Shown here in pieces: positions 51,550 to 64,000 of a stretch of 64,000 nt of DNA. The translations under genes and the position numbers were made by a program. The notes beneath the pieces are model-generated. The model worked only from the letters and a program-made list of their open reading frames with translations, was not told the DNA's origin and did not search any database. Source of the stretch: a virus; the IMG/VR virus record IMGVR_UViG_3300045988_174665. One strand, given 5' to 3'. How positions within the stretch are numbered: position 1 is the stretch's first letter; each line of letters opens with the position of its first letter.

Positions 51550-52476
51550 TTAATGTGCCAATACATCATAAGTAGAAATTACACTTAAATCTTTATAAAT
51601 ATTATTACCAATAAGGGCTTTGAATTTCTCTTTAGATGTCTGACTTTTTCTTAATCTTAATTCCATATGAAATTGAATTAAAACTGTTATATATAAATCT
51701 CTTTCGAGAATTGTTTTATACATATCGTGATGATAAGGAACTGTCGTTTTATTAACTAAATATGCGTATGCAGAAACAAATTGATGGTTATAATAATGAG
51801 ATATTCCTTTATCATCTTTAGTTTCCGTAAATATCTTTCCAATATCGTGATACTGTAAAACTTCTACAAGAATGTCTTTTTCATAATTTTCTTTTGCTAA
51901 AGTAGCCGCAGTATCCATATGTAATCCGATTGGAAAAGAATGATGTGGATTGTTATGATTGATTGTTCGTGAAATACTTAATAGACTATCTAAATCCTGT
52001 GTTGGCAAAAGGTTATTCTTATTTTGAATGATTCTAATATCATCCCAACCTTCATAGTAATAAGGAACAGTAAAATGCTGTAGCTGTTTGTAAATTACTT
52101 CAGCTGGAACAACAACCTCTCGGGTTGAATCTGCTTTTCTTTTAAAAATTTCCTTTAAAGATGCAATTGCCACTACACATATCTTTTTACACGGTATTTT
52201 TTCAATACTTTTTAAAAAGTGAACTCGTCTTTTAAAGCTGAGATTTGTTGCATCATAAATAACATTTTTGCCCTCTTTTAAATCCGCAATAACACGATTT
52301 CCTAACTTTGAAAAAATCTTTTGCGGGTTCGCTTGTATATTGGCATCACCATAAAGCTCCTTTCTAATAGCATCAGAGGAATGAATGACGCCATTATATT
52401 TAATTGCAATTTCTTTTGCTAAAGTTGACTTGCCGCTGTAGCTAAGTCCAACCATCATAATAAAATAATTCGTCAT
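51550..52476 (-). CDS. P-loop polynucleotide-kinase-like domain fused to an HD phosphohydrolase domain
   Basis: Walker A GLSYSGKST, SSDAIR and YDATN...KRR (PNK-like). The C-terminal half has H...HD...D residues (HHSFPIGLH, YHDIGK). Confidence 0.65.
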   Translation of the reverse strand: MTNYFIMMVGLSYSGKSTLAKEIAIKYNGVIHSSDAIRKELYGDANIQANPQKIFSKLGNRVIADLKEGKNVIYDATNLSFKRRVHFLKSIEKIPCKKICVVAIASLKEIFKRKADSTREVVVPAEVIYKQLQHFTVPYYYEGWDDIRIIQNKNNLLPTQDLDSLLSISRTINHNNPHHSFPIGLHMDTAATLAKENYEKDILVEVLQYHDIGKIFTETKDDKGISHYYNHQFVSAYAYLVNKTTVPYHHDMYKTILERDLYITVLIQFHMELRLRKSQTSKEKFKALIGNNIYKDLSVISTYDVLAH

Positions 52477-53622: not shown

Positions 53623-54495
53623 TCATTTTAATGCTCCTTTCTCCTTCATTTCTGTTAATCTTACTGCTACTTCTACAGTTATAGTATCAAAATACTCAAG
53701 AAAAATCTGTTGCAAAAGTCCTGATGCGTTTTTTTCTGACCATTTTTTATCTGTGTCTAAAGTATAGGTTTTATCGTCTTCAAATAATTCTATCGAAGGA
53801 ATCTCATAAAATTTTTCTGGCGACAAATCTTCTTTAAATATATTGATTAAATTATTAACATTAGAAAAAGTGATTGCTTTATATTCTTCTGCATTATATT
53901 TATATTCAAGAATCATGCGAGAAGAAAAACCAGAAAAATTTGTGTACATTTCTGAAATTGAGACACCGTCGAAAATTGCAAATAACCAATTAATATGGTA
54001 AAAAACTCTATACCACTTTTGTTTGCAACGAGAACAACTAGTTATCATTCCCATCACTTGACGATAAAGAACAGAATAATTTTGAAAAAATACCTGATTA
54101 ACTTTTGATTTAAGCTGTTCGTAAAATTCTTTATATAATGGATTAACTCTTATTGTGCTACTTAGAATTGGTTCAAAATAGGTAAAATTTCCTTTAAAGA
54201 AACTTGTAATAAACTTTCTGATATCAACAGTCTTAATCTTTCCATTATTTACTACAAGCTCATGGCAATCAATCTGTTTGTTTAGACAAAATTCTTCATA
54301 GGTTGGAAAAATGACCGCCACAGCATCATAATCACTTAGATTTGTTGCTAATTCATAATTTTGACTGCCAATTAAAGATATAAAGAAAATTTCTCTGCCA
54401 CCGTCGCTTAAAATTTTTTCATAACCCCTTAATATTGCATCTACTTTATCTGCATAGTCCTTATTTAACAGACTTACCCTATCGTATCTATACAT
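53623..54495 (-). CDS. Pol-beta-superfamily nucleotidyltransferase (RlaP / PF10127-like)
   Basis: GSQNYELATNLSDYD matches the GS-x(9-13)-DxD nucleotidyltransferase motif. Adjacent to the RNA ligase gene. Confidence 0.55.
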   Translation of the reverse strand: MYRYDRVSLLNKDYADKVDAILRGYEKILSDGGREIFFISLIGSQNYELATNLSDYDAVAVIFPTYEEFCLNKQIDCHELVVNNGKIKTVDIRKFITSFFKGNFTYFEPILSSTIRVNPLYKEFYEQLKSKVNQVFFQNYSVLYRQVMGMITSCSRCKQKWYRVFYHINWLFAIFDGVSISEMYTNFSGFSSRMILEYKYNAEEYKAITFSNVNNLINIFKEDLSPEKFYEIPSIELFEDDKTYTLDTDKKWSEKNASGLLQQIFLEYFDTITVEVAVRLTEMKEKGALK

Positions 54496-54575: not shown

Positions 54576-55769
54576 TTAATCGTGATGCTTAAGCAGATAT
54601 TCTCTCGAAACATTTTTAAAGCTAAAATCAGTCTTTGGATTTCTCAATACAATTCCCTCTCTATATACAGAAGGATTAACAACCGACTTCGCAGTCGCAA
54701 CTTTCTTAAATTCGTCCAAATCTTTAGGAAGCTTATAATGAGCATCGAGAATTGGGACAAATTTCATTCCCATTTCATTTACCACCAATTGTGCCTCAGT
54801 AGAAGGTACTCTACCTCTGTCTGAACGAATAAAATTAAAGATGTATAAATCATCTTCTTTGAGCTTCAAAGGATTACCTTGAACGCTGCCTACAGATTCG
54901 CCTTGAACACAAACATAATCAAGCTCAGGATTCTGTTTTAAATATGTTTCAAGTTGCTCTCTAATATGGTATTTAAAAGCCATATCCCAATAAATGTTAT
55001 GGTCGTGATAGCAATTTTGTTTCTCATCTTTCTGTCTTATATTTCGAGAAAGAACATAAAATTCAAACTTATTTCTTCTCTTCTTTTTTCTTTCAAGAAT
55101 ATAAGTTGAAGAAGTACCGTCCAACTTCTCAGTTACAATCCAATCATCCTCATTATTAAGAATAAAGGGAATGTTCTCAACTCTCTCTTCGTCGGTTTTA
55201 TGAATATAAGGGAAGTGAGTTGGAAAAGCCTTTGGACTATCTTTCTTTTTGCCCAAAAAGACAAAGAGAAGTTTTCTACCCCACTCCCTCTTCATAAGCC
55301 AACGGAATGGCTTCTTTTTCATAATATTTTTATGTCTTGCCGCCATTGACATATATTTAATATCTTTAGCTTTGTTAGCCTTACGAATATTATCATCTTG
55401 AGAAATATAAGTTACTCCAAGCTTCTGTCCAACATCAGAATGAAGTGGTAAATCTTTAAATTCTGGAAAAGCAGACAGCGGCATTAGAAGTCCTTGTGAA
55501 ATAACTTTACACATTCTTTGAGTCTTTACTTTAAAATTACGCTTTGCCATAAAAGTAAATCTCTCATCGTTGTCAGGAACTTTTGAGTCAATTTCAAAGT
55601 AAATACCTTTCTTTTTAGTTTCGTCATTAGGGTCAAAGTCGCCCTTTCCTACTACGCAATGCCAGCCACCAACAGTTGCTAATTCAACCCTATCGTAACC
55701 TTCCAATGGAGTGACCTTATCAACCTCTACAATATAAGCTAACATTCTCTCGCCTTTTTCGTTTAACAT
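54576..55769 (-). CDS. ATP-dependent RNA ligase with an N-terminal OB/tRNA_bind-like domain (Rnl5/DraRnl-like)
   Basis: N-terminus AYIVEVDKVTPLEGYDRVELATVGGWHCVV is OB-like. Nucleotidyltransferase motif I is TEKLDGTS (KxDG). Confidence 0.75.
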   Translation of the reverse strand: MLNEKGERMLAYIVEVDKVTPLEGYDRVELATVGGWHCVVGKGDFDPNDETKKKGIYFEIDSKVPDNDERFTFMAKRNFKVKTQRMCKVISQGLLMPLSAFPEFKDLPLHSDVGQKLGVTYISQDDNIRKANKAKDIKYMSMAARHKNIMKKKPFRWLMKREWGRKLLFVFLGKKKDSPKAFPTHFPYIHKTDEERVENIPFILNNEDDWIVTEKLDGTSSTYILERKKKRRNKFEFYVLSRNIRQKDEKQNCYHDHNIYWDMAFKYHIREQLETYLKQNPELDYVCVQGESVGSVQGNPLKLKEDDLYIFNFIRSDRGRVPSTEAQLVVNEMGMKFVPILDAHYKLPKDLDEFKKVATAKSVVNPSVYREGIVLRNPKTDFSFKNVSREYLLKHHD

Positions 55770-56334: not shown

Positions 56335-57987
56335 TTATAAATATTGTTTAATTAACTCAGAAAAGTTTCTTAAAAAATGAATCGAAATGGTGTCTTTTTG
56401 TAGGGCCGCTGTTCGCTGTATATCCCAAGCATTTTTAATGCCTGCCTGAGATTGCTGCGTTGGATAAAGTATTTCTGGAGTTGTAATAGTAACTCGAACC
56501 AATTTAGATAAATTTTTTTCTTTTGTATAATCTGTAATTGCCCGATAAATTAAATATAAGAAAAAGGACAAGGGAATTAATATACCGTTCAAGTTCATAA
56601 TGTGAATAGCATTTGTGGTTGTTTCTTTAAAATCTCCAATAGAAGAGGCATCGTCAAATAATAAATATGCCACATCCTGAGCTAATAAACGGCTTAAATC
56701 TTCTTTATAATTTTCTTGATTACCAATTGCCCCTTTTCCTAATTGTAAAATTGCTCCAACCACATAAACAAAATTTTTATCTATATTAGAGAAAATTTCT
56801 TTAAAAGAATCCATTTTAATAGCTGTGCCGGCGGAGTAACCTCTCTTAGAAAAGTTTTCATTTAAGGTATATAATTTAGAAGAACTATAAACAATAAAGC
56901 CATTATTAATTTTATCTAATCTCTGTCTTAAAATTTCAAATGCTCTATTATTATCCACATAATTACCTAAAGAGTTTTCTTTTGTAATTTTTTCTATAGC
57001 GTCTTTATCTATACCATAAGTATAAATATTATCCGCTTTAATCTTTTTCTCTCCAGAACCAATTCCTTCAATTTTGTATCCTTGATTTTTATTGTTTTGT
57101 AACATAAAGATGAAGTTTTCCAAAAATTCTTGTTCTAAACCGCCTTGACCAGCCGCTGTCTGCATAGCAACTTTGTTCTTTCTAGTGTTACCCAAAATCG
57201 CCTGTTTACAACTCATTAAGCTAACTCCTCTTTTACTTTTACTTTCTTTAATTCTCTTTTTAATTGAATTTTTAATTTTATCAACTTGATACACTTGGCA
57301 CATATTCCGCACGAAGGGGTTGGTGGCAGCCTTGCCTCTATATTTTTCTAAAGCTTCTACAACTTCGGCATAAGCGTTAGAATAATCTTTCCCAGTTTTA
57401 TTTAATCCATTTTCTTGATTAGCACTGAATTGTAAAATTAAAGCTTCTTGTACAATTTCTGGCATTACCTCGTCAATTACATTTTCAATTGCTGAATTAA
57501 TTTTTACTCCTTTTTTAATTTGACTAATAATTTTTCGAGAAATTTTTCCCTCATATTTATCCCAAACCTTACCAAAATAAGTGCCAAAAAAGGCAGTAAC
57601 TGTTTTTTGTCCCTTGGTATTCTTTATTAAGGCTACATTTCTTTCATAAACTTTTTTTAAGTTCATCGTTTCATTAAGAAGCTCAATTATTTTCTTTGCT
57701 CCATCTGCGGAGGCTGTCGAATCTTTTACTCCCCTTCCTACATTAATACCATAAACTTTTCTTAAAAGGGCTTTTTCTTTCTTTTCTTCATTTTGAGCTA
57801 GTCTTAATAATTGCTTGGCAGCGGTGACGTCTTCTGAACCCAGAGCATTTCTGAATTTACCACCGTCCCTCAAATTTCTTTTAATTGTATCGTAAGTTTT
57901 TCTATAAGTCGGTCCACTGTCTTTTAATCTTTCGTAAAAAACATACATACTAGACAAAGAGCGACTTTGTATGTCTAAAGCTGGCAT
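56335..57987 (-). CDS. large hypothetical protein (550 aa)
   Basis: Long ORF with an AGGAGG RBS. No motif recognised by eye. Confidence 0.5.
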   Translation of the reverse strand: MPALDIQSRSLSSMYVFYERLKDSGPTYRKTYDTIKRNLRDGGKFRNALGSEDVTAAKQLLRLAQNEEKKEKALLRKVYGINVGRGVKDSTASADGAKKIIELLNETMNLKKVYERNVALIKNTKGQKTVTAFFGTYFGKVWDKYEGKISRKIISQIKKGVKINSAIENVIDEVMPEIVQEALILQFSANQENGLNKTGKDYSNAYAEVVEALEKYRGKAATNPFVRNMCQVYQVDKIKNSIKKRIKESKSKRGVSLMSCKQAILGNTRKNKVAMQTAAGQGGLEQEFLENFIFMLQNNKNQGYKIEGIGSGEKKIKADNIYTYGIDKDAIEKITKENSLGNYVDNNRAFEILRQRLDKINNGFIVYSSSKLYTLNENFSKRGYSAGTAIKMDSFKEIFSNIDKNFVYVVGAILQLGKGAIGNQENYKEDLSRLLAQDVAYLLFDDASSIGDFKETTTNAIHIMNLNGILIPLSFFLYLIYRAITDYTKEKNLSKLVRVTITTPEILYPTQQSQAGIKNAWDIQRTAALQKDTISIHFLRNFSELIKQYL

Positions 57988-58056: not shown

Positions 58057-58818
58057 TTAGGACAATTGTACAACCTCGTCCAGTAATAAAGTCATATTGG
58101 AAGTTAATGGTTGGTTTGCGTGGAAATGCCCACAATACCAATGTGTGAAAGTAATTTTATCATAAACCTCTTCTAAAAATTCTTCCATAGAAGTATCCGC
58201 TTCTCCATAATTAAAAGGAAGAAATAATTCTGTGGGTTCATATTTAAGTGGACAAGTATGACTAAAAATATAATCATATGAGTTATTTTTTGAAATAATT
58301 TCAAAAATTTCCTTTTTCTTCTCTTCATCCATTTGTTCATCGGGATACCAATATCCCCTTTTATGAACTACTCTCCAATATTTATCAATTGAATACGCCC
58401 CACCAAGTACAAGACACTTTTTCCCTAAAATTGTAATTACTCCATCATCAGGGAATAAAATATTAGAATACTTTTTTTCTACCCAACAATTACATTTTAA
58501 ATCTCCTCTACATTGAATTTTTTGATAAGAAGGAATATGCTCGGGGCGGCAATCGTGATTACCTTGAATACAAATTAAAGTAATTGGTAAATTACTAATT
58601 TTTTGCTTAATCTTTTCTCTATAAGACTTACTTTTATCTATAAGAGGCTCTCCCCATTTTAAACCAGTATTCATTTCATCATAAATATATCCATAATTGA
58701 TTCCAGTATCACCCAAAAGAATTAAATAATCTTCTTTAGTGGTATTATTTTCCCTGCAAAATTGAGGTAAAAAGCCAAACTGACCGTGAGTATCCCCTCT
58801 TACAAAAATTCTTCCCAT
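58057..58818 (-). CDS. Ser/Thr-phosphatase-type metallophosphoesterase
   Basis: ORF 58057..58911 runs into the tRNA-Gln gene. Start set to MGRIFVRGDTHG (58818), which follows GAGGAGAAAGGA. Motifs GDTHG, GD, GNHD and GHFH. Confidence 0.75.
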   Translation of the reverse strand: MGRIFVRGDTHGQFGFLPQFCRENNTTKEDYLILLGDTGINYGYIYDEMNTGLKWGEPLIDKSKSYREKIKQKISNLPITLICIQGNHDCRPEHIPSYQKIQCRGDLKCNCWVEKKYSNILFPDDGVITILGKKCLVLGGAYSIDKYWRVVHKRGYWYPDEQMDEEKKKEIFEIISKNNSYDYIFSHTCPLKYEPTELFLPFNYGEADTSMEEFLEEVYDKITFTHWYCGHFHANQPLTSNMTLLLDEVVQLS

Positions 58819-58863
58819 TCCTTTCTCCTCTCTTATATACAAAAATCCCTTATAAAGGGAACT

Positions 58864-58938
58864 TGGCAGCGGAGAAGAGAATCGAACTCCTACCCGTTGG
58901 GTCAAAGCCAACTGTACTAACCGTTATACTACTCCGCT
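58864..58938 (-). tRNA. tRNA-Gln (anticodon UUG)
   Basis: Hand-folded cloverleaf: acceptor AGCGGAG/CTCCGCT, anticodon arm GTTGG-CTTTGAC-CCAAC, T-loop TTCGATT, G73, CCA encoded. Confidence 0.85.
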
Positions 58939-59574
58939 ATATTTAATTTAATAACTTATTTTAGCCATATAAAGACCTTCGCCTTACTTTGATTTAGTTT
59001 TCTTCTATATTCAGCCACTAAGAAAACATACTTGAGCCTTGGGGAGCTACCCCAAAACGATATGCCCTATACCTCTTTAGAGGCAACTAAGCTTAGAAGG
59101 GAATGATTACCCTTAACTTTCACCCACCATCCAAAAAATATAATATCTTTTTAACATAAAAGGTATTTTCATCATTGTTTTTCTATTTACGGTATTGAGC
59201 TACTCGCACATTAAACTTGCCTTATAGTTAAGTTACCTTAACATCACTACCACACCCCTTATTTGAGTTACTAAGGTTTGCTAATTTCTCAGGTTAGCCT
59301 AACTTAGCTTATTCTTTCACTGAAAGCGTCTATTACGGAGCGGACAAGAATTTGCCTTTAAAAGCAACTAATCAAGCACATCTTTCCCACCAAGAAGACC
59401 CGTCTTTTATCTCCGCCCTTATTAGGTCACCCTAATAAGTTCTCGTTGATTTAAAGTATCCTTAAAATCCTTACTAATTGGAATTATTGGAAAGATTCTC
59501 GGCACGATGGCATTCGTCTTCACCGAGGTTTATATGATTAAAATAAACTATTAAATTTTCAAGGTACAATTAAA
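58939..59574 (-). ncRNA. about 636-nt ORF-free structured spacer: candidate large ncRNA (ROOL/GOLLD-like context)
   Basis: No ORF of 60 aa or more on either strand. Many hairpins on the minus strand, e.g. CUUAUUAGG-GUGA-CCUAAUAAG, UUGGGG-UAGC-UCCCCAA, CUCGG...CCGAG and GGCGGA...UCCGCU. Flanked by tRNA genes. Confidence 0.4.
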
Positions 59575-60688: not shown

Positions 60689-60827
60689 AAATTTAATAAG
60701 AATGACACTCTTTGCTTGTATATTCGCAATGACCATCTCATTCTTATCTTTAAATTACTTAAAACCAGAGGGTGACAATCCTCATTTCCATAAAGGCGAT
60801 AGATGCCCGTTCTATCCTTGGTTTTAA

Positions 60828-61385: not shown

Positions 61386-61767
61386 ATATTTAAAGGTGCA
61401 GGGATAGCCTAACCCCACATCGAGCAGGAAAACACCAAGAATTTTTCTGCTCATTGTTTAAGCATCCCGACCAGTTTCTCGGTAACTGCGGCCAAGGCTT
61501 CCTTTTCGTTATATCCCGTTAGTAGAAACCATCAATTTTTCTTCTAAGGCAGATAACTCCAGTACTGCACTAACTTCTGGATATACGTTCAAGCAAGTAT
61601 CACTTACCAAGTTTAACGACATTGACAAGTCGGCTAGATTAGATATAGAATTTTAATCTATACCCTACATATGGGAAGGACAATGACCTGGCTGTTTTTA
61701 CTCTATAGGTTTCAGCCTAACTATTAGAGTAAGGAATCTCATCTTTCTGAGGCGTCACATTGTCCTC
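61386..61767 (-). ncRNA. about 382-nt ORF-free structured spacer (candidate ncRNA)
   Basis: Long-range GGACAAUG/CAUUGUCC, hairpins UACUCUAAUAG...CUAUAGAGUA, GAGCAG...CUGCUC and CCGA-GAAACUGG-UCGG. The track ORFs here (61079-61454) are spurious. Confidence 0.35.
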
Positions 61768-61848
61768 TGGAGCAGATGAAGAGAATCGAACTCCTGCTAT
61801 CAGTTTCAGTTCGGAGAACTGATGTACTAACCACTATACTACATCTGC
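61768..61848 (-). tRNA. non-canonical tRNA-like gene (anticodon loop UCUCCGA with C33; 10-nt variable region)
   Basis: Good acceptor (GCAGATG/CATCTGC), D and T arms, and CCA. The anticodon stem 3' strand is duplicated (ACTGA-A-ACTGA). Reads as UCC only if C33 is tolerated. Confidence 0.45.
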
Positions 61849-61860
61849 ATATAAGATAAT

Positions 61861-61936
61861 TGGCTGTTCATTGGAGATTCGAACTCCAGACCACCGTGTA
61901 CACCAGTAGCTCTTCCTAACTGAGACTTAATGAACA
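61861..61936 (-). tRNA. non-canonical tRNA-like gene (anticodon uncertain)
   Basis: Acceptor TGTTCAT/ATGAACA, T arm TGGAG-TTCGAAT-CTCCA, CCA. The best anticodon arm, TACTG-GTGTACA-CGGTG, has pyrimidine 37 and a 3-nt variable loop. Confidence 0.4.
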
Positions 61937-62304
61937 ATATATTATAAATACTAGATTCAGATAAGCAAGACTTTACAAATCTCTAGAATATCCGTGAAAT
62001 AATCGTTATGTCTGCAGAACATATAATTATTTCATCCTACTTATCTGGTAAGCTTTCTTGGGCGAGATGAACTTACTAACTCTACCTTAGAATAAAAATA
62101 GCATCTAACATCATTTTATCCCTCTATAGAGATTTACTTAAATTTTAGTTATACAAGCAGCCCGTGTTTACCGTTACACTAACAACCGCATATATTGCCT
62201 TGCTTGTGATATAAGCTCTGCAAAGCATAGAGTTTGTATCGTACCACTCAATCCCTTATTTATTCGCTTTATTTTAGGTATCTAATAATTGCGATTAGAT
62301 TTAC
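61937..62304 (-). ncRNA. about 368-nt ORF-free structured spacer (candidate ncRNA)
   Basis: Hairpins GAAAUAAU...AUUAUUUC (with a nested AUGU...ACAU), ACAAGCA...UGCUUGU, GCUU-AUAUCAC-AAGC and UCUAAU...AUUAGA. Confidence 0.3.
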
Positions 62305-62395
62305 TGGCGGCGAGGGTGAGATTCGAACTCACACACCTCTTTCCAGCTACTAACAGTTTAGCAAACTGCTTCCTTACCATTAGGATTACCTCGCC
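62305..62395 (-). tRNA. tRNA-Ser (anticodon GCU), class II
   Basis: Acceptor GGCGAGG/CCTCGCC, anticodon arm GCAGT-TTGCTAA-ACTGT, long variable arm, G73, CCA. Confidence 0.8.
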
Positions 62396-62398
62396 ATA

Positions 62399-62426
62399 TG
62401 GCTAGAGTGGTTGGACTCGAACCAAC
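62399..62426 (-). other. isolated tRNA 3' half (T arm, acceptor 3' strand, GCCA) fused to ncRNA unit B
   Basis: GTTGG-TTCGAGT-CCAAC-CACTCTA-G-CCA, with no complementary TAGAGTG 5' strand anywhere nearby. Lies 2 nt after unit B and 3 nt before tRNA-Ser. Confidence 0.5.
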
Positions 62427-62428
62427 TT

Positions 62429-62512
62429 ATATTCGGAAATTTAAAGTTCTTATAATATAGATTAAAAGTCTATTCCTAATGGGTAGAAGGATGAACCTCA
62501 ACAGCCGAATAT
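62429..62512 (-). ncRNA. structured RNA unit B of a five-member paralogous array
   Basis: Outer helix AUAUUCGG/CCGAAUAU; internal loop CUGU/AAUUU; inner helix UGAGGUUC/GAACUUUA (two G-U pairs); AUCCUUCUA; hairpins UCCU...AGGA and AUAGA-CUUUUAA-UCUAU. Confidence 0.6.
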
Positions 62513-62532
62513 TTATTTAACTTACATTAAAT

Positions 62533-62561
62533 ATTATAGCATATATTTTATTATTTGTCAA
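62533..62561 (-). promoter_or_regulatory. consensus promoter driving ncRNA unit B and downstream tRNAs
   Basis: Minus strand: TTGACA (62561-56), 17 bp, TATAAT (62538-33). Lies about 20 nt upstream of the unit B outer helix. Confidence 0.6.
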
Positions 62562-62591
62562 ATATTTTTTATTATTTAAAATTTGTTCGAT

Positions 62592-62721
62592 GCGGTAATT
62601 TTAACATCTACATAATACTATTGCACTACCAACTGTGCTACATCCCGCTTTAATGGGATGGTGGGAATCGAACCCACATCACATAGTCCCCTGATATAGA
62701 AGGATGATGTTAGTCAGCCGC
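62592..62721 (-). ncRNA. structured RNA unit A carrying a circularly permuted tRNA-like module
   Basis: GCGG-CUGAC-UAACAUC-AUCCUUCUAUAUCAGG-GG-ACUAU-GUGAU-[GUGGG UUCGAUU CCCAC]-[CAUCCC AUUAAAGC GGGAUG]-UA-[GCAC AGUUGGUA GUGC]-A-AUAGU-...-GAUGUUA-AAAUUA-CCGC. Confidence 0.65.
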
Positions 62722-62735
62722 ATATTTTTTATATT

Positions 62736-62812
62736 GTGGAAATTTGTTTCTCTAAAATCTTAATCCCAAATCAAGTGCTTGTTAGCGTAGAAGGATGAAA
62801 AACAATAGCCAC
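62736..62812 (-). ncRNA. structured RNA unit C
   Basis: GUGG-CUAU-UGUUUUUC-AUCCUUCUA...GAGAAACA-AAUUU-CCAC, with one G-U pair in the inner helix. Confidence 0.55.
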
Positions 62813-62825
62813 TTTGAGAAAGAGA

Positions 62826-62888
62826 TGTGGGAATTTAATGCTCTTTTAAAACCGTTTATTATATAGAAGGATGAGCATTACAGCCACA
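62826..62888 (-). ncRNA. structured RNA unit D
   Basis: GUGG-CUG-UAAUGCUC-AUCCUUCUA...GAGCAUUA-AAUUC-CCAC. Confidence 0.55.
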
Positions 62889-62899
62889 AATTATAAATA

Positions 62900-62991
62900 G
62901 TGGAAATCGGACTTTCTATCTTATTATTATGGAGGTGGCTAAACCACCGAAATTCTTTTTTTTTCTTAGAAGGAAGAAAGTCCATAGCCAC
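62900..62991 (-). ncRNA. structured RNA unit E
   Basis: GUGG-CUAU-GGACUUUC-UUCCUUCUA...GAAAGUCC-GAUUU-CCAC, with an internal hairpin GGUGG-UUUAG-CCACC. Confidence 0.55.
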
Positions 62992-63015
62992 AATAACTTC
63001 ATTTTATTTCACAAA

Positions 63016-64000
63016 TTATAACAAAGCAAATAGTTCATCGGTATCAAAAGCTGTGACAATCGGAACTTCTGGCTTTTCCTTTATAACGGGTTTTGTGGTA
63101 CCCGTAACCTCGTCAAACTCTTTTGCAATTTCATAAGGTACTGTTGTATCATTACTAAAAATGATATCCGCTTCATTTCTATTTGTAACAATACTACCTC
63201 TTGCAATAGCGTTCATCATTACAAGGTCATAAATATTTGCCTTATTAAGATGTGTTAAACCATAGCAGGTTGCAGTTACACCCTGTAAATTACTTTCAAG
63301 ATTATTGCCATAAAACCTCGGACTTCCATTCTGAAGGTTCATATCACACCAGATGAACTTACGCTCAACACAATCAAATATAACAGGTATAGCAACAGTA
63401 CTATCAGCAGTTAAGTCAATCTTCATTTCAACTGTTTTCGGCTCGAATATCTCACCGCTATTTACATCTTCTCTTTCCATCCATCCGAAACGGCAATTGG
63501 GAAGCGTAGAAAAATGCTGTCGTGTAAAACTATAAACCTGAAATGCAATGTATCTACCAGCGTTTTTAGCAACTGCATCAATGTCCACATCAATAAACTC
63601 TGCTACACCATCACCGTTAATATTTCCGCCATTGGTAATGTCACCCGAATGATATGCTCTATATTTTGCAGAGCGAAGTTGTGTATATGATACACGGTCA
63701 ACATACTGCCAATTTTCGTCATAAATGGTTGCAGAAAGGTCAATATCAACCCTGTCTTCACCCCAACCATTTCTCGCCTTATCGGTATTAGTCCACCAGA
63801 TAAAACCACGAACAGCTGTAGCGTCTTTCTTAATGGGCAACTTACTACCACGAACAATGGTCTTAACAGCCTTACTTGCACTTCTCTGACTAAACGGAAC
63901 AAGATAATTTTTGAAATCCTCATCAATATAAACTTTTCCGAGGAAATCTTTTTCCTTATACTGTTCAATTAAAGCATCACGGCAAATCGTTGCAATATTG
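63016..64000 (-). CDS. TerD-domain protein (partial; N-terminus lies beyond the window)
   Basis: The track ORF 63016..63840 begins at a TTG, but the frame stays open to 64000. DIDLSATIYDENWQYVDRVSY...YHSGDITNGGNINGDGVAEFIDVDIDAV...YIAFQVYSF matches the TerD fold pattern. ORF 63603..63968 is an out-of-frame artefact. Confidence 0.6.
   Translation of the reverse strand, partial: NIATICRDALIEQYKEKDFLGKVYIDEDFKNYLVPFSQRSASKAVKTIVRGSKLPIKKDATAVRGFIWWTNTDKARNGWGEDRVDIDLSATIYDENWQYVDRVSYTQLRSAKYRAYHSGDITNGGNINGDGVAEFIDVDIDAVAKNAGRYIAFQVYSFTRQHFSTLPNCRFGWMEREDVNSGEIFEPKTVEMKIDLTADSTVAIPVIFDCVERKFIWCDMNLQNGSPRFYGNNLESNLQGVTATCYGLTHLNKANIYDLVMMNAIARGSIVTNRNEADIIFSNDTTVPYEIAKEFDEVTGTTKPVIKEKPEVPIVTAFDTDELFALL

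Follow-up and report, generated by a model that had tools for sequence, protein, structure and literature searches.

Organization of the locus

The window analyzed here, a 64,000-nucleotide stretch of viral DNA (IMG/VR record IMGVR_UViG_3300045988_174665), ends within a gene on the minus strand that encodes a TerD-family protein. The gene terminates at 63016 and is followed on the same strand by RNA units built on a shared stem, termed here the handle; the window holds five copies of the handle's signature strand, all inside 62433–62991. A sequence-only reading had described one of these units, unit A, as a circularly permuted tRNA-like module embedded in a noncoding RNA, with a stem common to all five units and a TerD domain in the adjacent gene. 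Re-reading bore out its exact coordinates and every element listed for it, as well as the common stem and the TerD nature of the gene. The features are as follows.

63016–64000, minus strand: presumed partner gene, C-terminal 327 codons, truncated where the window stops (named "TerD family protein" at NCBI; homologs)
62900–62991, minus strand: unit 1, handle with a UUCCUUCUA variant and the module hairpin GGUGG-UUUAG-CCACC (38 bits)
62827–62887, minus strand: unit 2, handle and a short degenerate module (sequence comparison)
62736–62812, minus strand: unit 3, handle and the anticodon-arm mimic CUUGA-UUUGGGA-UUAAG, Pro-UGG type with G at position 37 (sequence comparison)
62592–62721, minus strand: unit A, whole 130-nt scaffolded tRNA-mimic RNA (covariance model R1 match with identical ends, 128 bits; helices covary in homologs)
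62533–62561, minus strand: predicted sigma-70-type promoter TTGACA, 17 nt, TG-TATAAT, between unit A and unit 5 (consensus match, 12 of 12)
62433–62508, minus strand: unit 5, handle and the anticodon-arm mimic AUAGA-CUUUUAA-UCUAU, Lys-UUU type (51 bits)

The predicted promoter would start the transcript of unit 5 and the tRNA array, and relatives show a like arrangement. The RNA-repair genes noticed earlier some 7 kb away are confirmed as an RNA ligase, an RlaP-like nucleotidyltransferase, an AAA_33 kinase, and a metallophosphatase; the window also holds 11 tRNAs and a ROOL RNA. In a near-identical contig, Thg1, PTH2, and DHHA1 adjoin the array. An orphan T-arm/CCA fragment lies near the units (62396–62432). 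A megablast search for near-identical phage records returned only one 79-bp tRNA match.

Structure and conservation of unit A

Read 5′ to 3′ on the minus strand, the 5′ part of unit A comprises GCGG, CUGAC, UAACAUC, AUCCUUCUA, UAUCAGGGG, ACUAU, GUGAU, and GUGGG-UUCGAUU-CCCAC, and the 3′ part CAUCCC, AUUAAAGC, GGGAUG, U, A, GCAC-AGUUGGUA-GUGC, A, AUAGU, AUUAUGUA, GAUGUUA, AAAUUA, and CCGC. The outer strands pair into two helices, P1 and P2, and the inner ones form the tRNA-like module.

62718–62721, minus strand: P1 5′ strand GCGG, partner 62592–62595 (CCGC); fully paired (100%) in both the 21- and the 43-sequence sets
62706–62712, minus strand: P2 5′ strand UAACAUC, partner 62602–62608 (GAUGUUA); two-sided changes in 6 of 7 pairs, 97% of cells paired
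62697–62705, minus strand: handle signature strand AUCCUUCUA (family consensus CUUCCUUCUA), immediately 3′ of P2; conservation
62617–62687, minus strand: tRNA-like module, ACUAU, variable GUGAU, T arm, closed acceptor hairpin, U8 A9, D arm, A26, AUAGU; YrlA local match, ARAGORN after un-permuting, four covarying stems
62661–62677, minus strand: T arm GUGGG-UUCGAUU-CCCAC; 3 of 5 stem pairs covary
62641–62660, minus strand: acceptor-like hairpin CAUCCC-AUUAAAGC-GGGAUG, 6 bp; covariation
62623–62638, minus strand: D arm GCAC-AGUUGGUA-GUGC, preceded by U8 A9 at 62639–62640; A14, G18, G19, and A21 conserved, stem covaries
62602–62608, minus strand: P2 3′ strand GAUGUUA; alignments
62592–62595, minus strand: P1 3′ strand CCGC; before it comes AAAUUA, a conserved strand of the internal loop (family consensus A/CUUUCC); alignments

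The weight of the structural evidence is comparative, since single-sequence folding of unit A gives only a mild signal against shuffles (z = −2.3), which is unconvincing alone. In a structure-blind MAFFT alignment of 21 homologous units, 93% of cells are paired (37–51% with slid partners), and two-sided changes are found in 24 of 36 pairs. When 37 units from phage and bacterial contigs, representing more than 20 loci and several phyla, are placed on the covariance model, standard pairs occupy 96.3% of the proposed pairs, as against 37–43% in slid controls. The handle alone was followed in a set of 43 short units, of which three come from the window and the other 40 from one cultured phage and a range of bacterial phyla; in this set 94.6% of cells are paired, compared with 44–51% after sliding. 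Every helix of the unit A structure has compensatory changes.

Within the handle, the outer two pairs of P1 covary and its two G-C pairs are invariant or nearly so in both the 21- and the 43-sequence sets, while two-sided changes occur in 7 of 9 P2 pairs of the 43 short units. The TCCTTCT of the signature strand is invariant in alignment A2, and the matching stretch is invariant or nearly so in alignment A5. A third helix, pairing AUCCUU with a GGGR before the module, is a weak possibility (70% paired, without covariation). In the module, the acceptor-like hairpin has 7 bp in nearly all homologs, with two-sided changes at all seven pairs, 97–98% of cells paired, and a capping loop of mostly 4–8 nt that is longer in a few. 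GGUUCGA of the T arm and the next CC are invariant in A2, and position 57 is G or A over the 37 units, giving GGUUCRA. The tertiary-contact (elbow) nucleotides of the D and T loops, on whose conservation among homologs the earlier reading had staked its case, are kept: U8, A14, G18, G19, A21, and the T-loop series G53-U54-U55-C56-R57-A58. Taken together, the alignments indicate that unit A is a real, conserved structured small RNA.

That unit A might instead be a decayed or scrambled, functionless remnant of tRNA genes in the phage array, conserved nowhere else, had been raised at the outset. Its location in a tRNA array and the orphan T-arm/CCA fragment would fit such an origin. Neutral decay is, however, incompatible with the compensatory changes seen in each helix over 37 units drawn from more than 20 loci and several phyla, and we give this explanation almost no credence.

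A permuted tRNA body

The permuted architecture proposed for the module proved to be right: a T arm leads into a closed acceptor hairpin and then a D arm, and the body is open at the site of the anticodon loop. Neither ARAGORN nor the Rfam tRNA model (RF00005) calls a tRNA in the native sequence (62592–62721). When the two halves are rejoined through any of four 7-nt anticodon loops and the acceptor is opened, ARAGORN calls a tRNA in 4 of 4 cases, and a homolog un-permuted in the same manner is called as well. Set against a canonical tRNA, the module has the tertiary nucleotides, the canonical spacings, and a conserved GGUUCRA..CC; it lacks a continuous cloverleaf, its acceptor being capped and its anticodon loop absent. 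One class of modules, termed here class B, is nearest to tRNA-Gln (12 of its 15 best matches). As the acceptor end is sealed by a loop, unit A cannot be charged or obtain a CCA end; as the anticodon loop is missing, it cannot be cut there.

The order of the halves, 3′ before 5′, is shared with the permuted tRNA genes of Cyanidioschyzon merolae and with two-piece or permuted tmRNA, and the Rfam permuted-tmRNA model finds a weak local match on unit A (19 bits). It could thus be supposed that unit A is a circularly permuted pre-tRNA of the Cyanidioschyzon kind, cut, circularized (perhaps by the phage RNA ligase), and reopened to a working tRNA. The canonical body, the acceptance of its un-permuted form by ARAGORN, and the phage-encoded RNA ligase and end-healing enzymes would be in keeping with this. 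Permuted tRNA and tmRNA are, however, processed to open a functional acceptor, whereas unit A is capped by a short loop and has no anticodon loop or mRNA-like part. No discriminator or CCA was found in the acceptor-like hairpins or capping loops of the units, so that a removable linker of the expected kind is missing, and a loop of mostly 4–8 nt leaves scant room for RNase P or RNase Z. Conserved anticodon-loop halves are likewise missing from the outer ends, where the flanks are the strands of the handle. Finally, the same handle bears modules that are not tRNA bodies, and in bacteria it has no tRNA part. A pre-tRNA is on these grounds very improbable.

A family of RNAs defined by the handle

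Comparison of the units indicates that unit A belongs to a modular RNA family of its own, defined by the handle, for which Rfam 15 has no match. The handle comprises a 4-bp P1 (NNGG/CCNN), an asymmetric internal loop (CUAU or CUGN opposite NNUUUC), a P2 of 7–9 bp, and a (C)UUCCUUCUA strand, and its apex carries a variable module. Three points had escaped the sequence-only reading: that the handle sets apart a large family, that this family is tied to the TerD-family gene, and that sibling units carry anticodon stem-loops. Unit A has all the marks of the family, namely the succession of P1, internal loop, and P2, the signature strand AUCCUUCUA at 62697–62705, and adjacency to the gene on the same strand.

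In phage arrays, which reach eight units and may lie on both sides of the gene, the modules are either tRNA bodies or bare anticodon stem-loops (Lys, Cys, Pro, Ser, Phe). A hairpin with a canonical 7-nt anticodon-type loop is present in 46 of the 165 units not classed as fully tRNA-like, against 7.8 ± 2.6 after shuffling. The recurrent loops sit on covarying stems and include CUUUUAA (11 times), CUGCAAA (seven times), and UUUGGGA (five times), as well as CUUGAAA and CUGAAAA. Unit 2 has a degenerate module in the window; its close relatives carry a Cys-type anticodon stem-loop, AAGAA-CUGCAAA-UUCUU.

The bacterial handle RNA is a single RNA of about 60 nt with a short loop at its apex, and bacteria have one to three units. 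Many bacterial units have a −10 box about 7 nt upstream of the 5′ end, and many have a U tract past the 3′ end, features from which an independent sRNA is predicted. None of the bacterial units carries a tRNA-like module; tRNA mimicry therefore cannot be what the RNA–gene pair did ancestrally, and its use in phages is an elaboration. Anticodon-like loops in short bacterial units are marginal (7 of 50, against 1.9 ± 1.3, a level reached by some shuffles) and are not claimed here.

Linkage with the TerD-family gene

Proteins of the partner family are about 700–750 aa long. A full-length relative of 749 aa has an alpha-solenoid in its N-terminal half and a TerD-like beta-sandwich, and the predicted protein structure likewise shows an alpha-solenoid followed by a beta-sandwich. 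The latter aligns to TerD-like phage proteins with TM-scores of 0.69–0.72 (target-normalized), and Pfam TerD is matched in 6 of 23 family members. The NCBIfam model NF041916 (MXAN_6230/SCO0854 family RING domain-containing protein) gives 276–481 bits, with E down to 7e-144, below its curated cut-off of 600. The N-terminal part of NF041916 is left unmatched, and Pfam found no RING domain. By these profile matches the partner is a clear NF041916 homolog over roughly the C-terminal two thirds, yet a separate branch.

Foldseek searches of the PDB with a full-length model of the protein and an AlphaFold model of the N-terminal part alone gave no significant match, only generic ARM/HEAT repeats (E at least 0.016), and Ro60 was absent from the best 50. 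Pfam detected no TROVE domain in the protein, sequence and profile searches of the PDB gave no match, and in BFVD one weak match to a phage TROVE protein was obtained (E = 5.7e-3, TM about 0.2). Given only a generic ARM/HEAT likeness and a single weak BFVD match, we do not claim homology to Ro. No nuclease domain was found. PADLOC has no model for the protein, so that it has no known link to defense or anti-defense. The family is large, with about 2,900 clusters at 50% identity.

The association of RNA and gene is strict. Among viral loci fetched through the protein, 79 of 80 bear units, and all 292 model matches at the 104 gene-oriented loci fall on the strand of the TerD-family gene. This comprises 208 of 208 matches at 51 viral loci, the majority immediately flanking the gene, and 84 of 84 at 52 bacterial loci. 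Gene and RNA still occur together at a protein identity of about 33%, in Rhodococcus phage Weasels2, which is in culture: two units at record positions about 85640–85833, one short and one tRNA-like (62 bits), occupy the unannotated interval that follows gp266, with RtcB 3 kb away. No other conserved protein-coding neighbor was found in 80 viral and 80 bacterial loci; RtcB is nearby in 6 of the 80 bacterial ones.

Conserved RNAs adjacent to a gene can be cis-regulatory, and the units, always on the same strand and immediately beside the gene, could be leaders, attenuators, or autoregulatory operator sites of the TerD-family mRNA rather than trans-acting RNAs. Many bacteria in fact have a single unit ending in a U tract just before the start codon, much like a terminator leader. 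By contrast, many bacterial loci have their unit solely on the downstream side of the gene, those of Niallia, Heyndrickxia, Saprospiraceae, and Saccharibacteria among them, and in phages up to eight units may flank it. The −10 box of many bacterial units is placed for a start at the first nucleotide of P1, and it is not obvious what a leader would do with modules as elaborate as the tRNA-like and anticodon-arm ones. Cis-regulation is accordingly improbable as an account of the family.

Relationship to YrlA and other Y RNAs

YrlA carries a tRNA-like domain on a terminal stem (Chen 2014, PMC4201824; Wang 2018, bioRxiv 10.1101/312249). The Rfam YrlA model (RF02553) matches unit A locally at 62619–62685 (model positions 23–85 of 114; 37.0 bits, E = 4e-6). 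Seven homologous units score 34–44 bits against this model, mostly through the tRNA-like core alone, and its gathering score is 69 bits. The 5′ motif GNCGAAN0-1G, the proposed Rsr contact of YrlA (PMC4201824), occurs in neither unit A nor the consensus of the family; NNGGCUAU... is found in the 5′ region instead. The sequence-only reading saw no TROVE ORF, and Pfam agrees for 10 of the 11 window ORFs of at least 330 aa, all but the one of 2883 aa; none is listed in a 22-kb relative either. Because the match is below threshold and limited to the core, because the Rsr-binding motif is absent, and because no TROVE gene was found among these ORFs, we do not count unit A as a YrlA member. The earlier likening to Y RNAs consequently survives as regards topology, the module being recognized by the YrlA model, while membership of the Y RNA family is not supported by score, motif, or neighboring gene.

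The parallels are nonetheless extensive. As in YrlA, the paired 5′ and 3′ ends form a protein-binding stem (putative in unit A), the apex is tRNA-like, and the T arm, closed acceptor, and D arm follow in that order. There is no free CCA end, the equivalent of the anticodon stem enters the handle, and tRNA tertiary nucleotides are kept. Each RNA is encoded beside a large protein in which an alpha-solenoid is joined to a second domain of metal-binding type, and both are associated with RNA-repair genes. In contrast to YrlA, unit A has the handle sequence GGCUAU...CUUCCUUCUA...UUUCC without GNCGAA, its neighbor is of the TerD family rather than TROVE plus vWA, and handle units score under the Rfam threshold. 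They further differ in forming arrays of up to eight, in having an exchangeable apical module that is often a bare anticodon stem-loop, and in the short loop of the bacterial form; to our knowledge, arrays, an exchangeable module, and a short-loop bacterial form are undescribed for Y RNAs.

Should unit A be a genuine but divergent YrlA, it would work with a Ro60 or Rsr from elsewhere in the phage or host and tether Ro to an effector, as in Deinococcus and Salmonella. In its favor are the common topology of the tRNA-like domain and its recognition by the YrlA model, the RNA-repair genes nearby, the weak BFVD match of the neighboring protein, and the precedent of phages that bear both Ro60 and Y RNA (PMC4201824, PMC12135203). 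Yet the scores lie far below the threshold and come from the core alone in most units, a different conserved handle sequence is found where GNCGAAN0-1G is missing, and neither the scanned large ORFs of the window nor the best PDB fold matches point to TROVE or Ro60. Across phyla, the position of the RNA tracks the TerD-family gene, not rsr. We regard a divergent YrlA as quite improbable.

Proposed role of the handle RNA and its partner

We lean towards a reading, slightly better than even in our estimate, in which the modular handle RNA and the TerD-family protein form a Ro/Y-RNA-like particle that displays tRNA mimics in conflicts over tRNA damage. The handle would be the binding site of the neighboring alpha-solenoid and TerD-like protein, and the resulting ribonucleoprotein would be organized on the principle of Ro60 and Y RNA; the units would be transcribed and processed. 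Phages would have swapped the apical loop for pieces of tRNA and multiplied the units into arrays within their tRNA and RNA-repair region. Unit A would then present an intact elbow together with the acceptor, T, and D arms, and its siblings bare anticodon stem-loops. Such look-alikes may soak up or competitively block host effectors that target tRNA, for instance anticodon nucleases, while phage tRNAs and repair enzymes sustain translation. Alternatively, the particle could serve to bring in tRNA-repair enzymes, a platform role already proposed for Ro-YrlA. Taken by itself, the decoy role is tentative, and we place it somewhat short of an even chance. The broadest version of the proposal is rather unlikely: a widespread and apparently undescribed ribonucleoprotein of a handle sRNA of about 60 nt and an alpha-solenoid/TerD-like protein, from which large phages built racks of tRNA parts as decoys or uncleavable inhibitors of anticodon nucleases and other tRNA-targeting immune effectors. 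Several points count against the favored reading: the partner has no recognizable RNA-binding domain, links to the known repair partners Band_7 and RtcB are sparse, bacterial units bear no tRNA-like module, PADLOC has no model for the protein, and conserved RNAs beside a gene may act in cis.

Phage T4 Pnkp and Rnl1 counter PrrC, and phage T5 tRNA-Lys counters PARIS. The CUUUUAA displayed by unit 5 corresponds to the Lys-UUU loop, the target of PrrC and PARIS. In the same field of conflict, the phage studied here encodes tRNAs, Lys-UUU among them, together with end-healing enzymes and an RNA ligase. Whereas the T4 and T5 systems repair or replace cleaved tRNAs, an array of handle-mounted mimics would amount to a third strategy, that of a decoy or inhibitor. 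The arrangement also recalls type III toxin–antitoxin systems (ToxI/ToxN), in which tandem structured RNA units lie by the gene of their binding protein, here a presumed one. ToxI repeats are, however, near-identical and processed by the endoribonuclease toxin; handle units differ in their modules, number one to three in bacteria, and adjoin a protein without a nuclease domain.

A Band-7-associated tRNA-like RNA, b7a-tRNA, was reportedly predicted by Burroughs and Aravind in 2016. Unit A resembles it as a predicted tRNA-like noncoding RNA in an RNA-repair neighborhood, and this phage's lineage has a Band_7 gene upstream of the partner gene, at a distance of 1.4 kb. Unlike b7a-tRNA, which is said to strongly resemble authentic tRNA, unit A is permuted and set on a handle. 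A preprint citing that prediction remarks that YrlA-like RNAs occasionally adjoin Band-7 genes (bioRxiv 10.1101/312249), and the RNAs of that remark may be units of the present kind. We do not take Band-7 to be the conserved partner, which would make the units b7a-tRNA, since it adjoins just 5 of the 80 viral loci and none of the 80 bacterial ones. Literature searches on SCO0854/MXAN_6230, on TerD with tRNA-like RNAs, and on permuted tRNA-like RNAs in phages found nothing.

If the proposed particle exists, the principle of Ro and Y RNA was either invented twice or has diverged past recognition, with another protein and another handle. The phage arrays would be the first case known to us of a virus fitting a set of separate tRNA parts to one shared protein handle, with a bearing on how large phages survive host defenses that cleave tRNA. 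A possible function is also suggested for a "TerD family" protein that is annotated in many genomes and is not known to have been studied, and the exchangeable apical loop would make the handle a natural scaffold for RNA display. Experiments are directly possible, since the pair is carried by cultivable bacteria (Priestia megaterium, Paenibacillus, Brevibacillus, Niallia) and by isolated phages (Rhodococcus phage Weasels2, Xanthomonas XacN1, Lactobacillus LpeD).

A shared handle with variable modules

Repeat and pattern searches, together with inspection, confirmed that the stem noted in the sequence-only reading is common to five units:

62900-62991, minus strand, unit 1
62827-62887, minus strand, unit 2
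62736-62812, minus strand, unit 3, with a Pro-UGG-type arm as module
62592-62721, minus strand, unit A, with a tRNA body as module
62433-62508, minus strand, unit 5, with a Lys-UUU-type arm as module

The shared handle comprises helix P1, an internal loop, helix P2 and a conserved strand, and carries a variable apical module. The layout runs NNGG, CUR(N), a 7-nt strand, (A/U)UCCUUCUA, the module, the complement of the 7-nt strand, AAAUUN, and CCNN. Units A and 5 are separated by a stretch that includes a perfect sigma-70-type promoter (12/12 matches, extended -10 TG). The handle matched no family in Rfam 15, even at E up to 10. Its invariant strand (e.g., 62697-62705; bacterial consensus CUUCCUUCUA) resembles the Bacillus-type 16S rRNA 3' end (CCUCCUUUCUA), the anti-Shine-Dalgarno region; since Bacteroidota conserve it just as well, the strand would more likely be a protein contact.

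Unit A reads GCGG-CUGAC-UAACAUC-AUCCUUCUA-UAUCAGGGG-ACUAU-GUGAU-GUGGG-UUCGAUU-CCCAC, followed by CAUCCC-AUUAAAGC-GGGAUG-U-A-GCAC-AGUUGGUA-GUGC-A-AUAGU-AUUAUGUA-GAUGUUA-AAAUUA-CCGC (minus strand). All elements of the proposed permuted tRNA-like order, with their spacings, are present. ARAGORN identified 11 ordinary tRNAs in the window and made no call at unit A in its native order. When the two halves were rejoined through a 7-nt loop and the acceptor end was opened, a tRNA was called with all four loops tried. The single-sequence fold gains modestly over shuffles (z = -2.3). A permuted pre-tRNA was rejected as a reading of unit A, which lacks the discriminator, CCA, and anticodon-loop halves.

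At gathering thresholds, Rfam models matched tRNAs, a ROOL RNA, and a skipping-rope RNA in the window, and nothing at unit A. The sole meaningful match at permissive thresholds within 61700-63200 was the bacterial Y RNA YrlA (RF02553) at 62619-62685 (37 bits, E = 4e-6, gathering score 69), spanning model positions 23-85 of 114, the tRNA-like core only; tRNA-like units of other loci likewise score just 34-44 bits. The suggested link to the YrlA family is not supported: membership was rejected on the Rfam score, the absence of the Rsr motif, and the lack of an rsr neighborhood among the window ORFs scanned. Unit A works like YrlA yet falls outside its membership, and is best described, on our analysis, as a putative Y-RNA-like tRNA-mimic RNP element different from known Y RNAs. 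The handle, its link to a TerD-family gene, and anticodon-arm arrays were not found described in the literature searched. Part of this RNA family may have been glimpsed before, since YrlA-like RNAs are occasionally noted beside Band-7 genes (Burroughs and Aravind 2016, as cited in bioRxiv 10.1101/312249).

Conservation and linkage to a presumed partner gene

In a structure-blind MAFFT alignment of 21 units with a tRNA-like module, 93% of cells in the proposed structure are standard pairs, compared with 37-51% when 3' partners are slid, and both sides change at 24 of the 36 pairs. Covariation is seen in P1, P2, the anticodon-stem equivalent, and the T, D, and acceptor stems (7/7 pairs in the last), and is the reason for rejecting debris as an explanation of unit A. 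A candidate helix 5' of the module (AUCCUU/GGGR) is weak, being 70% paired without covariation. The match in the window to R1, a covariance model built from this alignment, ends exactly at 62592 and 62721. The 37 R1 hits with a tRNA-like module, including one that lacks the T arm (L130 5888-5991), are 96.3% paired (37-43% in slid controls). The sequence-only reading could have been dismissed had the D- and T-loop tertiary nucleotides varied in homologs or the element not been conserved elsewhere; neither is the case, because homologous units keep U8, A14, G18, G19, and A21 as well as the T loop GGUUCRA..CC, and the element recurs in relatives.

When viral contigs were scanned with the unit pattern, eight proved to hold four to seven units apiece, other matches being single and chance-like. 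In these eight, the units flank a gene of approximately 2.2 kb whose product starts ...ILLRRKHK...; the window ORF ending at 63016 encodes the C-terminal 327 residues of this presumed partner protein, which is 749 residues long in the nearest relative. Units are present in 79 of 80 viral loci fetched via the partner protein. Across 51 gene-oriented viral loci, all 208 R1 hits (E < 0.01) lie on the gene's strand, mostly clustered directly before or after it. The isolated Rhodococcus phage Weasels2 encodes a homolog (gp266, 33% identity) followed by an unannotated 390-bp gap containing two units, one tRNA-like (62 bits) and one short, with RtcB 3 kb beyond.

The partner family, which comprises approximately 2,900 clusters at 50% identity, is also found in bacteria from many phyla, cultivated as well as uncultivated, for example Priestia, Niallia, Paenibacillus, Brevibacillus, cyanobacteria, Chloroflexota, Acidobacteriota, Planctomycetota, Bacteroidota, and Saccharibacteria. 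All 84 hits in 52 bacterial loci share the gene's strand, and nearly all fall no more than a few hundred bases to either side of it. These units are 51-85 nt long, most of them shorter than 70. A -10 box lies approximately 7 nt 5' of the first P1 nucleotide in many, and in many a U tract lies directly 3' of P1, giving them, judged by sequence, the look of an independent small RNA. In 43 aligned short units (MAFFT; 39 bacterial, one from a cultured phage, three from the window), P1 and P2 show 94.6% pairing (44-51% in slid controls) and numerous compensatory changes; GGCU, (C)UUCCUUCU, UAG, and UUUCC are near-invariant. The handle RNAs are a structured, modular family whose position and orientation are, across phyla, strictly tied to a single protein family.

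On the Priestia megaterium chromosome, one handle RNA of approximately 60 nt adjoins the partner gene (L237 4840-4900). Other cultivable bacteria likewise have a single such RNA, at many loci with the promoter-like -10 box and U tract. All these bacteria offer a ready experimental system.

The presumed partner protein

The adjacent gene had been described as containing a TerD domain, and this is borne out: Pfam TerD (PF02342) matches 6 of 23 family members (best E 5e-6), and the NCBI name is 'TerD family protein'. The nearest relative itself has no Pfam match, PADLOC gave none, and scores for NCBIfam NF041916 (MXAN_6230/SCO0854 family) are 276-481 bits, under its 600 cut-off. The motif YHSGDITNGG...GVAEFIDVD resembles the calcium-binding TerD signature. 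In AlphaFold models (pLDDT 74-77), a largely alpha-helical repeat N-terminal half precedes a β-sandwich. Foldseek searches of BFVD returned family members in Lactobacillus and Campylobacter phages, stand-alone TerD-like proteins (TM-score normalized to target approximately 0.7), and a single TROVE protein, from a phage, that matched weakly (E = 5.7e-3). The best PDB matches were generic ARM/HEAT repeats, and Ro60 was absent from the top 50 for both the whole protein and its N-terminal half. The predicted plan, an alpha-solenoid plus a metal-binding-type domain, parallels the HEAT-repeat ring and vWA domain of Ro60, a parallel that need not mean homology. As the sequence-only reading had it, no TROVE ORF was found among the window ORFs scanned.

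Displayed tRNA parts and proposed function

In phages, the apical loop is replaced by tRNA bodies and anticodon arms. There are at least three kinds of tRNA body: one clearly tRNA-Gln-like (D arm GCCAAGCGGUAAGGC; tRNA-Gln is 12 of the 15 best matches), another with an Arg-like D loop (AAUCGGAUA), and that of unit A, nearest, weakly, to tRNA-Lys(UUU). Modules resembling different tRNAs are seen at L126 4991-5130, L125 7592-7728, and L123 3261-3395. Of 165 distinct non-tRNA-body units, 46 contain a hairpin closed by a canonical 7-nt loop of anticodon type, against 7.8 ± 2.6 in shuffles, and identical loops recur on different, compensating stems (distinct units in parentheses): CUUUUAA, Lys (11); CUGCAAA, Cys (7); UUUGGGA, Pro (5); CUUGAAA, Ser (3); CUGAAAA, Phe (3); CUGGUAA, Thr (1); and CUGUAAA, Tyr (1). 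Some units display a T arm alone. Short bacterial units showed no convincing enrichment of such hairpins, so the tRNA parts are mainly a phage elaboration.

We infer that the handle binds the neighboring TerD-family protein, that phage units would be excised from longer transcripts, and that the particle may act in a conflict over tRNA integrity. A decoy or competitive-inhibitor role is tentatively favored, as anticodon nucleases recognize exactly such parts as the units display. Alternatively, within the same frame, the particle could be a platform gathering tRNA-repair enzymes, a role suggested for Ro-YrlA and likewise for the pairing of Band-7 and b7a-tRNA (bioRxiv 10.1101/312249, citing Burroughs and Aravind 2016). 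As decoys, the anticodon arms would be possible sponges, and the tRNA body would allow no cut in the anticodon loop and no modification at the acceptor end.

Genomic surroundings

The window does encode the nearby RNA repair set previously reported:

54576-55769, minus strand, RNA ligase with a PHA02142-type OB domain
53623-54495, minus strand, RlaP-like nucleotidyltransferase
51550-52476, minus strand, AAA_33 kinase
58057-58911, minus strand, calcineurin-like phosphoesterase (metallophosphatase)

A 550-residue ORF among them (56335-57987) has no family match. A near-identical contig carries, in order, Band_7, RNA genes over 1.4 kb, the 749-residue gene, RNA genes over 1.8 kb, and then Thg1, PTH2, DUF488, metallophosphatase, and DHHA1. 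Band_7 was rejected as a general partner, being adjacent in 5/80 viral and 0/80 bacterial loci; no other conserved protein neighbor was found in bacteria, RtcB being nearby in 6/80 loci.

Downstream of the units lie the 11 tRNAs and, inside this array and a few kb from the scaffolded units, two further RNAs:

58954-59551, minus strand, full-length ROOL RNA (301.6 bits)
60760-60826, minus strand, skipping-rope RNA (44.3 bits)

In a related phage contig, the array of tRNAs and handle RNAs has a tmRNA upstream of it (L152 963-1362, 76.9 bits). Two tRNA-like sequences accompany the units in the window:

62396-62432, minus strand, orphan tRNA 3' part (T arm, 7-nt acceptor strand, GCCA; AAGUUGGUUCGAGUCCAACCACUCUAGCCA)
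61861-61936, minus strand, uncalled 76-nt cloverleaf-like sequence

The orphan has unit 5 on one side and tRNA-Ser on the other and looks like what a deletion left behind; in close relatives its place is taken by a sixth complete unit whose tRNA body has the D arm GCCAAGAGGUAAGGC (L123 6361-6500). Some 350 nt between tRNA-Ser and the cloverleaf-like sequence (61940-62300, minus strand) contain no ORF or Rfam match. The cloverleaf-like sequence, called neither by ARAGORN nor by the Rfam tRNA model, could be a further tRNA mimic or a tRNA that is aberrant. Its acceptor stem pairs perfectly over 7 bp (UGUUCAU/AUGAACA), its T arm reads UGGAG-UUCGAAU-CUCCA, its GCCA end is encoded, and GUGUACA is a possible loop.
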